Positions 29,619 through 31,724 of a stretch of 64,000 nt of DNA are shown piece by piece. Numbering within the stretch: the stretch's first letter is position 1; every line of letters begins with the position of its first letter. A program made the translations under genes and the position numbers. The notes under the pieces are model-generated. The model was not told where the DNA came from, did not search any database, and saw nothing but the letters and a program-made list of their open reading frames with translations. The DNA is from Candidatus Iainarchaeum sp. (lineage in GTDB: Archaea; Iainarchaeota; Iainarchaeia; Iainarchaeales; 1-14-0-10-31-34): the NCBI GenBank assembly GCA_017609625.1, contig JAFCDN010000010.1:9153-73152 (forward strand), given 5' to 3'.

Positions 29619-29894
29619 GTGGAAATAGAAGTAATAAAAAAAGAAAAAAACCTTTTAGAATTTAAAATTAAAGGAGAAAGACATGCTTTATCTAATCTGC
29701 TTAAGACCAAATTACTGGAAGAAAAAGAAGCAGAATTTGTTGCATATAAATTAGAGCATCCAATGGACGAAGATTCAGTTTTTGTTTTAAGAACAAAAAC
29801 AAAAGACCCGAAAAAAGTTTTATCAGATGCTTTAACTGACCTTCAAAAAGATTTAAATGAATTTTCAAAAGAGTTAAAAAAGAATTTCAAGTAA
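29619..29894 (+). CDS. rpoL: DNA-directed RNA polymerase subunit L (Rpo11)
   Basis: MEIEVIKKEKNLLEFKIKGERHALSNLLKTKLLEEKEAEFVAYKLEHPMDEDSVFVLRTKT matches the RpoL/Rpb11 pattern (E...GEDHTLGNLL...V.FA.Y...HP). Confidence 0.75.
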   Translation: MEIEVIKKEKNLLEFKIKGERHALSNLLKTKLLEEKEAEFVAYKLEHPMDEDSVFVLRTKTKDPKKVLSDALTDLQKDLNEFSKELKKNFK

Positions 29895-29909: not shown

Positions 29910-30731
29910 ATGGATATAAAAAAAGAATATGATTCTTTCAGAAAAAAACTCTCTTTTTTGAAGTGGCTTGATCCGTTTACTTATATTGAAATTCTTCTTA
30001 GAAAATTTCATCCAGAAAAAGAAAACCCTTCAAACACAGATAAATTAATTGACAACGTAGTTTATATTGTTTCAGCTTTAATTCTGGCTTTTCTTTTATA
30101 CACTCTTTTAGGCCTTCTGCTTAACACAAGTTCCCCTATGGTGATTGTTTCTAGTTCTTCAATGGTTCCGGAAATGTACAGAGGAGACATTATTGTATTA
30201 TATGGAGAAAAAAACCTTAAAGCAAAAGAAGTAAATTTTGACGGAAGCATTTCAGATAAAATGTATTTAGAGTACGGAAAAACTTTTCCTGATCCAGTGG
30301 AAAAATTCATTGATACTTCCACCGGACAAATTATAGTTAAATTAAATACTGCAGAAGAAATACAGATTGGAGAAGAAAAATTTCCTGTAACAAAAGACGG
30401 AGACACAATAGTTTATTTTTCTCAGTATTCCCAGAAAGACATTATTCACAGGGCTGTAGCAAAAATTAATGCAACAGACGGTGTTTTTTTCTTAACAAAA
30501 GGAGCTGCAAACCCCTCTCTTGATCAGGAATGCGTTAAAGAAACAACTGCAACAGGACAAACAGTTTATTTAGCCTGTATTTCAAAGAAAGCAGTATCAG
30601 AAGAAGAAGTTAAAGGAAAAGCAGTTTTTAGAATTCCTTTAGTCGGCTGTATTAAAATCTGGGTTTTTGACAATATCCCTGCTTTTTTTGCAACAGGAAA
30701 ACTTCCTTCAGATTTTTATGGTGTCTGCTAA
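29910..30731 (+). CDS. Signal peptidase I (archaeal Sec11/S26-type)
   Basis: N-terminal TM, catalytic Ser box IVSSSSMVPEMYRGDIIVL, and His box DIIHRAVAKI, with a long insertion between them. Confidence 0.65.
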   Translation: MDIKKEYDSFRKKLSFLKWLDPFTYIEILLRKFHPEKENPSNTDKLIDNVVYIVSALILAFLLYTLLGLLLNTSSPMVIVSSSSMVPEMYRGDIIVLYGEKNLKAKEVNFDGSISDKMYLEYGKTFPDPVEKFIDTSTGQIIVKLNTAEEIQIGEEKFPVTKDGDTIVYFSQYSQKDIIHRAVAKINATDGVFFLTKGAANPSLDQECVKETTATGQTVYLACISKKAVSEEEVKGKAVFRIPLVGCIKIWVFDNIPAFFATGKLPSDFYGVC

Positions 30732-30878
30732 AACCTTTTAGAAAAAGGTTTATCAAAAACTGCTTCGCAGAAACCTTTTAGAAAAAGGTTTATCAAAAAC
30801 TGCTTCGCAGAAACCTTTTAGAAAAAGGTTTATCAAAATGCTTCGCAGAAACCTTTTAGAAAAAGGTTTATCAAAATG
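30731..30878. repeat. Tandem array of 3.6 x ~40-bp units, each containing a perfect hairpin AAACCTTTT-aga-AAAAGGTTT
   Basis: Units at 30731-30770, 30771-30810 and 30811-30848 (2-nt deletion), plus a partial unit 30849-30878. A further hairpin GTCCAGC-gcaag-GCTGGAC is at 30878-30896. The array starts at the signal-peptidase stop codon. Confidence 0.85.
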
Positions 30879-30977
30879 TCCAGCGCAAGGCTGGACTGCT
30901 GTTCTAAAGAAATACTCTTTAAATTACTTCTACTGATTATTTCTTATTGTAAAAGAAAAAACAAAAAAGGTGAATAA

Positions 30978-31724
30978 ATGAAATTAGTTTTAGATGATGC
31001 AACTCAATTCAAGAAAGCAATTGATGCAATCTCTGTTTTAATTGATGAAGCAGAAGTAATTGTTTCAAAAGACGGATTAAAAGTTAAGGCAACAGACCCT
31101 TCTCAGATTTCAATGATTGATTTTAAAATGCCAAAAAGTGCTTTCTCTGAATATACAATAGAAAACGAAACAAAGCTTGGAATAGATTTGAATTATTTAA
31201 GCCAGGTATTAAACAGAAGCAAAGCAAAAGAAAAATTAATCCTGGAACTGCAGGAAAAAGAATCAAGGTTAAAGGTTCAGTTGAAAGGAAATTCTGTCAG
31301 GACTTTTTCTGTTCCGCTTATAGATATTTCTTCTGCTGACCTTCCAACTCCAAAAGTTGAGTTTGATGCAGTAATAAAAGCAAAAGCAAACTTAATTCGA
31401 GACGGATTAAAAGATTCTTCTTTGGTTAGCACGCATGTAACTTTAGGAATCACTTCAAAAAACTTTTTTATTAAAGCAAGCTCTTCTAAAGGAGAAACAG
31501 TAAATGAAATAACAAAAGAAGACAAAGACTTAAAGGAATTAAATGCAAAAAAAGAATGCTATGCAATGTTTCCTTTGGATTATCTGCAGGACATGCTTAA
31601 AGCAACTGAAGCAGATACAATAGTTGAATTGTCTTTGAAAAGCAATGCTCCAGTGAAAATAAACTATTTAGTAGGAAAAGCAGAATTAGAATACTTTTTG
31701 GCTCCAAGAATAGAGTCATCCTAA
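30978..31724 (+). CDS. pcn: DNA polymerase sliding clamp PCNA (paralog 1)
   Basis: MKLVLDDATQFKKAIDAISVLIDEAEVIVSKDGLKVKATDPSQISMIDF..., a ~248-aa length, and a C-terminal ...FLAPRIE. RBS aaaggtga. Confidence 0.85.
   Translation: MKLVLDDATQFKKAIDAISVLIDEAEVIVSKDGLKVKATDPSQISMIDFKMPKSAFSEYTIENETKLGIDLNYLSQVLNRSKAKEKLILELQEKESRLKVQLKGNSVRTFSVPLIDISSADLPTPKVEFDAVIKAKANLIRDGLKDSSLVSTHVTLGITSKNFFIKASSSKGETVNEITKEDKDLKELNAKKECYAMFPLDYLQDMLKATEADTIVELSLKSNAPVKINYLVGKAELEYFLAPRIESS

Follow-up and report, generated by a model that had tools for sequence, protein, structure and literature searches.

Between the genes for signal peptidase I and PCNA in a 64,000-nucleotide (nt) stretch of the Candidatus Iainarchaeum sp. 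contig JAFCDN010000010.1 (hereafter the window) stands a tandem array of DNA hairpins, which raises the question of what such an array is, how it came to lie there and whether it acts on either neighbour. A first reading, made from the sequence alone, had placed a repeat array at 30731–30896, between these two genes and starting on the stop codon of the first; both the sequence itself and Tandem Repeats Finder confirm this. We propose that the repeated unit is a portable palindromic module, akin to repetitive extragenic palindromic (REP) elements and to MITEs (miniature transposable elements bounded by inverted repeats), whose hairpins with U4 tracts would act as a leaky, bidirectional transcript-end signal and which was amplified locally here. 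This proposal, drawn from sequence comparison, is the account we favour, and we consider it about evenly poised between right and wrong.

The array comprises four head-to-tail units of two hairpins each, at spacings of 40, 40 and 38 nt. Every unit opens with a perfect 9-bp hairpin (H1; AAACCTTTT-AGA-AAAAGGTTT), which is followed by the linker ATCAAAA and then by a short GC hairpin (H2). The sequence-only reading had described 3.6 units, all identical, and a separate hairpin downstream, and on both counts it has to be amended. Units 1 and 2 are indeed the same 40-mer, AAACCTTTTAGAAAAAGGTTTATCAAAAACTGCTTCGCAG, but unit 3 has a 2-nt deletion relative to them (AAAAACTGC is changed to AAAATGC), and the supposedly separate GTCCAGC hairpin is the H2 of the fourth of four complete two-hairpin units; a second small hairpin, CTGC-TTC-GCAG, had not been reported for units 1–3. 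The stem of the unit 4 H2 (GTCCAGC…GCTGGAC) is also found after tRNA-Leu in a related metagenome-assembled genome (MAG; locus L024). Tandem Repeats Finder delimits 30731–30876 (period 40, 3.7 copies, 97% matches, score 278), by far the strongest tandem repeat of the window, and the 21-nt hairpin occurs four times per strand, versus 0.05 expected from shuffles, and at no other site in the 64 kb. The array folds beyond shuffles on both strands (z = −5.0 and −4.6), and each unit carries one T4 and one T3 run on the plus strand and two T5 runs on the minus strand. That this is not a CRISPR array had been recognized correctly: the DNA between successive 28-nt cores is 10–12 nt long and identical or nearly so, not a set of unique spacers of ~30–40 nt. 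One more copy of the first 12 nt of the unit (AAACCTTTTAGA) lies 1.1 kb upstream, in the rpoL coding region (29648–29659), and is within chance (0.13 expected).

The unit is not private to this locus, as had been thought conceivable. Scanning one genome per species (185,579 species, mostly bacteria) with the 28-nt core, AAACCTTTTNNNAAAAGGTTTATCAAAA, we found it in 49 genome stretches, every one of them archaeal. Its carriers span DPANN lineages and other archaea; according to the record titles, they are Iainarchaeum/Diapherotrites (among them AR10, a complete genome), Micrarchaeota, Woesearchaeota, Nanoarchaeota, Altiarchaeota, many Methanophagales (ANME-1), Syntrophoarchaeum, Methanosarcinales and Thermoplasmatota. 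The full 40-mer of the window matches Methanophagales locus L031 at 38 of 40 positions, seven other ANME-1 loci at 37 of 40 and the AR10 units at 35 of 41; the AR10 H2, CAGC-TTC-GCTG, differs from that of the window by a compensatory swap, and the unit 3 form, ATCAAAATGCTTCGC, is also present among the ANME-1 copies. Because the family is nearly unchanged in other archaeal phyla, the unit is not a locally seeded minisatellite, and the idea that it was seeded from the 3′ end of the signal peptidase gene loses its support, the likeness between gtctgctaa and ctgcttcgcag being one of a few bases only.

The same comparisons make it hardly credible that the array is an assembly artefact, or the product of purely local slippage without wider meaning. 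Short perfect tandem repeats can be mis-assembled, and units 1–3 differ by one 2-nt indel only; local duplication certainly contributed. However, a collapsed or expanded loop would not yield a unit 3 of 38 nt and a unit 4 with another H2, the unit is present in dozens of other genomes, and the same kind of array appears in independent assemblies of AR10 and of a second sample (L066). Head-to-tail arrays like that of the window were found only in AR10, at four loci, and in the identical L066 record; beyond these, a metagenome scan for the tandem pattern gave only three chance matches in coding DNA.

Comparison of the family members shows a hairpin that is conserved as a structure. In H1, the loop is free, as one and the same stem carries 13 or more different triplets; the inner C-TTTT/AAAA-G never varies, and the outer four pairs covary. 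Compensatory outer-stem changes were seen in copies outside the exact pattern (AAAACTTTT/AAAAGTTTT, CAAACTTTT/AAAAGTTTG, GAAAATTTT/AAAAATTTC, AAACCCTTT/AAAGGGTTT and CAACCTTTT/AAAAGGTTG); in 15 hand-picked distinct variants, double changes filled 17 cells versus 5.8 in shuffles, numbers that illustrate the pattern rather than prove it, since the set was selected for pairing. On the 5′ side of AAACC the bases vary, and it is the 3′ flank (ATCAAAA) that is conserved, with linker variants ATCAAAA, AACAAAA, ACCAAAA and GCGAAAA. H2 is often present, its sequence being free in DPANN copies and GC-TTC-GC in the subfamily formed by ANME-1, AR10 and the window; several copies are without it. Folding of the DNA downstream of the core is more stable than that of shuffles (−5.6 and −6.2 vs −3.0 kcal/mol). 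Counts of G–U pairs (53 on the reverse and 21 on the forward strand) were too weak to decide the functional strand, and several of the copies have no H2.

In ANME-1, the core is part of either an ~85-nt element starting at a stop codon or ~220-bp repeats with ~30-bp terminal inverted repeats, and it is enclosed by an outer stem, CTTTCTTT…AAAGAAAG, that covaries to CTCTCTTT…AAAGAGA in L009 and L049. A comparable stem around the window unit was considered and found unconvincing, as only TCTGC/GCAGA could pair. Two MITE-like repeat families of ~200–270 bp were noted in ANME-1, at L003, L023, L027, L030 and L041 and at L004, L008, L012, L013, L028, L034 and L047; their ~30-bp terminal inverted repeats are built of short direct repeats (agacacagattaacgcagattaacac… and accacgagattacacgagattaacac…), and the core sits beside the left end.

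These features bear on the possibility that the units are iterated sites for a dimeric DNA-binding protein, be they centromere-, iteron- or operator-like. A 9-3-9 dyad whose spacer is free and whose inner half-site is invariant, tandem direct copies in a fixed 40-nt phase and a low copy number per DPANN genome would all suit such sites, and a conserved protein would explain the constancy of sequence across phyla. Known examples are the 43-bp sopC repeats of plasmid F, parS and iterons, in which ~40-bp tandem direct repeats likewise each contain a short inverted repeat, and the parS site is constant across phyla because its binding protein is conserved. Such sites, however, have partition or replication genes as neighbours, and it is their double-stranded sequence that is read. 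A protein that reads sequence does not require compensatory changes in the outer stem, and the second hairpin of the module keeps its structure, not its sequence; furthermore, the copies keep to exact gene and stable-RNA ends, a tRNA intron and the MITE-like repeats of ANME-1, no partition, replication-initiator or regulator gene recurs nearby, and the absence of the array in close relatives means that it is not an essential chromosomal site. We consequently regard binding sites as quite improbable.

How the array came to its present position can be read from contigs with the same gene order, whose PCNA homologues are 75–83% identical and whose sources are named Micrarchaeota, Diapherotrites or simply archaeon. 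The spacer that separates signal peptidase from PCNA measures 60–77 nt in L051, L052/L054, L058, L068 and L069, versus 246 nt in the window; in these relatives it is made up of the stop codon, 7–22 nt, a conserved TTTAAATTA/ATTAAAT box, a stretch rich in A, AGGTG and the ATG. The window has its stop codon at the homologous position (…GVC-stop versus …GLC-stop) and its box preceded by a normal 22-nt spacer; its extra DNA is exactly the array, located between the stop codon and the conserved box, and the array is absent at the orthologous sites of L051, L052, L054, L058, L068 and L069. Because the surplus coincides with the array and both stop codon and box are conserved, we conclude that the array was gained in this lineage, upstream of the PCNA promoter. 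It thus appears to be a lineage-specific insertion that PCNA does not need; like the membership of its units in the family, the insertion is well supported. Recent expansion, which the sequence-only reading had offered as one possibility, is favoured by the absence of the array from all syntenic relatives. Exact-protein look-ups of the window PCNA and signal peptidase found no matching record, and a metagenome scan for the specific junction of the array found no match. The window array has the 5-nt sequence CTGCT on each side, no terminal inverted repeats and no clear target duplication; CTGCT itself was ruled out as a simple target duplication, the position of the stop codon being conserved in relatives.

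The PCNA upstream spacer has received other DNA elsewhere. L067 and L068 encode the same PCNA protein and are 100% identical over 116 aligned nt upstream, yet they differ by a clean 100-nt block: in L067 (1396–1495), between the PCNA ribosome-binding site and ATG, three reverse-orientation units of an H1-like hairpin and ACCA(C)AA are flanked by a 10-nt direct repeat, AAAAAGGTGT, which regenerates AGGTG. At strain level, this site is polymorphic (filled or empty) for a related hairpin block, part of which turns up again at ANME-1 loci and within an intron of tRNA-Pro in L045. At the exact site of the window array, from the signal peptidase stop to the PCNA TATA box, L070/L071 (1357–1451) carry ~80 nt of other hairpin modules (ACCCGC-ttccgt-GCGGGT, GCAAGAC-tttca-GTCTTGC and CACAATT-gaaa-AATTGTG), the first of which also stands after tRNA-Glu in L011 and is present in L033. 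In L055–L057 (866–2500; a Micrarchaeota MAG), three extra genes (a 251-aa protein, DUF7718 and an HVO_A0114-like protein) separate signal peptidase and PCNA. The spacer would therefore seem to be a recurrent landing site and insertion hotspot; three independent hairpin-block insertions lie here in related genomes, and short hairpin modules appear to be exchanged among these genomes.

The placement of the copies bears on their function. Mechanical calling of open reading frames (ORFs) puts every family copy in intergenic DNA. In the window, L001, L020, L038, L047 and L050, the stop codon of a gene in the same orientation is overlapped or directly adjoined by the AAACC end, and at six ANME-1 loci it is the outer-stem strand that starts at the stop codon. 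In the same orientation, the module follows genes for tRNAs, 5S rRNA and signal recognition particle (SRP) RNA, and a variant follows the last repeat of a CRISPR array (Table 1). The gaps between convergent genes in L001 and L017 are filled exactly by the 28-mer alone. A rough count put a co-oriented gene upstream at ~31 of 40 loci, or at 16 of 22 without redundant ANME-1 copies. Copies in the opposite orientation also stand after genes (superoxide dismutase in L005 of AR10, L036 and a small ORF in L033), and there the gene is followed by the GC hairpin, a T4–5 run and then H1. A split tRNA, with its 3′ half next to the module in L046, was ruled out by Rfam, which identifies this neighbour as the 3′ end of SRP RNA. 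The CRISPR array of L023 (1–575) has a 37-nt repeat, GTGTGAAAAGTAGACCCGACTAATAGGGGATTGAAAC, in at least eight copies.

The presence of T4–5 runs on both strands of a palindrome, together with placement at the ends of genes and stable RNAs and in convergent gaps, argues for a role at transcript ends. The module belongs to a dispersed, non-coding, non-autonomous REP/MITE-like family that is common to many archaeal phyla and found at gene boundaries, and we infer that it is portable, the copy inserted in this lineage having then been amplified in tandem. The invariant C-TTTT/AAAA-G core of H1 places a T4–5 run on both strands, and transcription in either direction would then give a stable hairpin containing, or followed by, U4–5 tracts, the archaeal termination signal; in the reverse direction, the GC hairpin comes directly before TTTT(T)GAT. 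The module might thereby serve as a leaky, orientation-independent transcript-end element, that is, as a terminator, a hairpin protecting the 3′ end, or both, and in the window four such signals would have been added between the signal peptidase transcription unit and the PCNA promoter. Term-seq has shown that archaeal termination occurs at tracts of four or more U residues and that more tracts mean stronger termination through aCPSF1 (PMC8716108), and a T-stretch follows nanoarchaeal tRNA genes (PMC3491384). Directly after the signal peptidase gene, the coding strand of the window carries a T4 tract, which corresponds to the U4 of the former study. A scan for bacterial-type terminators flags only the minus-strand GTCCAGC hairpin with TTTTGAT, archaeal signals being outside the model of that scan. 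Among the functions that the sequence-only reading had listed, a multi-hairpin transcript end fits best, with the module at gene and RNA ends across more than 50 related loci; iterons and a structured small RNA gained no specific support.

Some copies lie instead in front of genes, where a portable core promoter has to be considered. AAAAGG would then be a B recognition element (BRE) and TTTATCAAAA (in reverse, TTTTGATAAA) a TATA box, and the array would provide four extra promoters aimed at PCNA and firing ~27–30 nt downstream. AAAAGG with TTTAT agrees with the archaeal pattern of a purine-rich BRE and a TATA box, and AAAAGG + TTTATCAA resembles the same pattern, but variants such as GCGAAAA do not fit, and both GCGAAAA and ACCAAAA would make poor TATA boxes. 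In L011, a variant box, TTTAACAAAA, begins 27 nt before tRNA-Glu. One Micrarchaeota MAG has a reversed module 0–2 nt from the 5′ ends of tRNA-Leu and tRNA-Ser (L024, 418–445 and 6579–6606) and of tRNA-Pro (L045, 4509–4536), so that TTTTGAT comes to lie at about −29 to −23, where Nanoarchaeum tRNA genes have their box A (PMC3491384); the copy at tRNA-Leu occupies a divergent spacer of 71 nt, a place that calls for no terminator. Nevertheless, two of these three tRNAs also have a canonical TTTATA box ~25 nt further upstream, and the distance from box to start is erratic elsewhere: it is 14 and 17 nt in L006 and L022, and ~16 of 39 loci have no co-oriented gene. In the exactly filled convergent gaps of L001 and L017, a promoter would only make antisense RNA. 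In the window, the next start codon comes 101 nt after the 28-nt core (H1 and ATCAAAA) of unit 4, with the PCNA box between them, and a spacing of 25–30 nt is seen only at some tRNAs (L011, L024 and L045); moreover, boxes of this genome look like TTTAAAT(A), as its upstream regions show, and PCNA keeps its conserved TTTAAATTA downstream of the array. A promoter role thus has real support at some tRNA genes but fails to explain the family in general, and we consider it rather unlikely.

A structured small RNA was weighed as well, either as an array processed to ~40-nt units in the manner of a ToxI-like type III antitoxin or as a 5′ leader or attenuator of PCNA. Its predicted fold is strong (z = −5), and ~40-nt tandem units, a stronger hairpin and then a gene resemble the layout of toxI, terminator and toxN. 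However, the family consists mostly of single copies, which stand in unrelated contexts and in either orientation, the gene downstream is PCNA with its own conserved promoter rather than a toxin, and PCNA is expressed in relatives without the array. No Rfam 15 family reached its gathering score on the module, whether in the window or at related loci, and adjoining matches were only to tRNA, rRNA, SRP RNA and one RT-16 RNA. We therefore give this explanation very little credence; a ToxI-like array upstream of a ToxN/AbiQ-type endoribonuclease was ruled out by the identity of the downstream gene and by synteny that is conserved without the array. The RT-16 RNA (RF03019, 82 bits), which is unrelated to the module, lies on the minus strand of a Nanoarchaeota contig (L022, 515–671).

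Returning to the portable transcript-end module, several observations weigh against it. On the plus strand, each unit of the window has only T4 and T3, the T5 runs being on the minus strand, where no gene needs them, and mapped archaeal terminators need no hairpin (PMC8716108). Two copies lie where an efficient terminator would be harmful: the 184-nt intron of a tRNA-Glu gene (L039, 2535–2795) opens with the exact 28-nt core at the exon–intron junction, and in the 16S–tRNA-Ala–23S spacer of L033 (5586–6000) a small ORF stands between a forward variant, right behind the tRNA, and an exact copy in reverse. By exact or near-exact matching, on which all copy numbers given here rest, there is one locus in the 64-kb window and there are four distinct array loci in the 1.24-Mb AR10 genome, while one ANME-1 MAG has at least eight exact core copies; with so low a copy number in DPANN, the module does not serve these organisms as their general terminator. 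The retrieval of most loci by an exact core match accounts for part of the conservation seen in the core. As regards mobility, the window array is without a clear target duplication, and clustering revealed no transposase or other protein family recurring within the ~8-kb loci around 50 copies, for which reason the modules would have to be non-autonomous; the loci retrieved also showed no candidate for an autonomous parent insertion sequence with matching ends. The T4-only runs, the intron and rRNA-spacer copies and the low copy number in DPANN fit a mainly selfish element that survives where it is least harmful. Hairpins of the similar form CTTTT-N3-AAAAG were also noted in tRNA introns of the DPANN loci L016, L042 and L045, and the small ORF of L033 (~58 aa, hydrophobic, with its own AAGGAGG) looks like a cassette between inverted copies of the module.

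A wider version of this proposal can be put forward only tentatively. The 40-nt unit could be a horizontally mobile, pan-archaeal ‘gene punctuation’ module, exchanged between DPANN and euryarchaea such as ANME-1 and mobilized by an archaeal enzyme, that acts as a bidirectional terminator, sometimes forms part of a tRNA promoter region and also occupies sites in tRNA introns; we think this unlikely to hold in full. On the reverse strand, H2 reads GCGAAGC (30762–30768, 30802–30808 and 30840–30846 of the window), followed by TTTT(T)GAT, and the same is seen in ANME-1 and AR10 copies. GCGAAGC is the classic DNA mini-hairpin of extraordinary stability, and its presence may point to a stage as single-stranded DNA; a mini-hairpin, TTTTGAT and a further hairpin are reminiscent of the hairpin-plus-cleavage-site substrates of single-strand-specific HUH-type enzymes, which are a possible lead. 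One viral contig of IMG/VR has a copy at the usual stop-codon position, next to proteins without a Pfam match; GenBank plasmids and phages gave no match to the module.

We file the module as a dispersed palindromic gene-end repeat, most like REP elements and signal-carrying MITEs and notable for its conservation across archaeal phyla. With REPs and bacterial interspersed mosaic elements it has in common that they are short (20–40 nt) intergenic palindromes just after stop codons, single or clustered, non-coding and non-autonomous, and REP hairpins in transcripts affect termination and 3′-end stability; here, a 21-nt perfect hairpin abuts stop codons or RNA gene ends in many copies. On the other hand, REPs are species-specific and number hundreds per genome, carry a GTAG that is conserved 5′ of their hairpin, form clusters whose orientation alternates and flank the gene of the REP-associated tyrosine transposase (RAYT) that mobilizes them, whereas the module is common to archaeal phyla, low-copy in DPANN, conserved on the 3′ side (ATCAAAA) without a GTAG foot and arrayed head to tail, with no associated gene found in the ~8-kb loci. 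MITEs with transcription signals, such as the Correia elements of Neisseria and archaeal MITEs, are likewise small, non-autonomous intergenic insertions with presence/absence polymorphism in close relatives; they can bring promoter- or terminator-like sequences, and in ANME-1 the core lies inside repeats of this general type. Nevertheless, the 40-nt unit is far shorter, has no terminal inverted repeats beyond its own hairpin and shows no clear target duplication, and MITEs have been reported to be taxon-specific (PMC11602168), while the core of the module crosses phyla. Oligo-U terminators acting with aCPSF1/FttA share the T4–5 tracts directly after genes and stable RNA genes and the use of several consecutive tracts, but they are degenerate and U-rich with no required hairpin or conserved sequence, unlike a specific 28–40-nt sequence with two hairpins. 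In Neisseria and Haemophilus, inverted pairs of DNA uptake sequences are conserved short inverted repeats that form terminator-like hairpins downstream of genes; these number about a thousand per genome, are restricted to a family and serve natural transformation, and nothing links the module to DNA uptake. A literature search with the sequence strings returned unrelated primers only, and the papers on MITEs, REPs and terminators describe nothing that matches; the module looks undescribed.

It is unusual for 28–40 nt of non-coding DNA to stay nearly identical from DPANN to ANME-1. Dispersed palindromes and MITEs are as a rule confined to a species or genus, and the current picture of archaeal terminators is one of degenerate U-tracts that lack a defined sequence or structure. 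Should the module prove to be a portable signal for transcript ends, many archaeal phyla would have in common a terminator-like element defined by its sequence, the first of its kind; it would also offer a handle for annotating the ends of genes and stable RNAs in uncultivated archaea and a candidate part for the genetic engineering of archaea. Mobility, if real, would imply a new mobilization system, as well as a route by which DPANN symbionts exchange DNA with other archaea.

Table 1. Features of the window and neighbours of the module at related loci
Feature	Locus	Position	Strand	Details
Signal peptidase I, 273 aa	window	29910..30731	+	NCBIfam TIGR02228, 77.4 bits vs cut-off 52
Unit 1, 40 nt	window	30731..30770	+	H1 30731-30751; linker ATCAAAA 30752-30758; A; H2 CTGC-TTC-GCAG 30760-30770
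Unit 2, 40 nt, same as unit 1	window	30771..30810	+	H1 30771-30791; H2 30800-30810
Unit 3, 38 nt	window	30811..30848	+	H1 30811-30831; linker ATCAAAA 30832-30838; then TGCTTCGCAG
Unit 4, array end	window	30849..30896	+	H1 30849-30869; ATCAAAA 30870-30876; T; 7-bp hairpin GTCCAGC-GCAAG-GCTGGAC 30878-30896
TTTAAATTA, probable TATA-like box of PCNA	window	30918..30926	+	position and sequence kept in relatives without the array
PCNA, 248 aa	window	30978..31724	+	Pfam PCNA_N and PCNA_C; AGGTGA 5 nt before ATG
tRNA-Val	L042			module 0 nt after, same orientation
tRNA-Gly	L017			module 2 nt after, same orientation
tRNA-Ala	L033			variant module 0 nt after, same orientation
tRNA-Ser	L024			variant module after, same orientation
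SRP RNA	L046			module 2 nt after, same orientation
5S rRNA	L019 and L040			module after, same orientation
Last repeat of CRISPR array (repeats end in ATTGAAAC)	L023			variant module starts 3 nt after

The genes around the array are, in order, SpoIIM-like (on the opposite strand), a Csl4-like protein, RpoL, signal peptidase, PCNA and a Na/Ca exchanger, the neighbours having been assigned with Pfam. Signal peptidase closes the co-oriented run of Csl4-like, RpoL and signal peptidase, and its stop codon, TAA at 30729–30731, shares its final A with unit 1. For the box in front of PCNA, the intergenic sequences of the window, L051, L052, L058, L068, L069 and L070 were compared by eye; judged from its position and the archaeal box A consensus, TTTAAATTA probably serves as the TATA-like box of PCNA, with the array upstream of PCNA's own promoter.

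Finally, three tRNA loci of the family have features of their own. In L015 (386–452), an apparent 5′ half of tRNA-Val(CAC), reaching to the anticodon loop, is directly followed by the core, and no 3′ half was found within 7 kb; this may be a split or disrupted tRNA gene. At tRNA-Glu in L011 (~351–450) and tRNA-Tyr in L016 (~1991–2070), an upstream module is bracketed by direct and inverted 12–15-nt copies of the 5′ end of the tRNA, which gives a long outer stem around the module.

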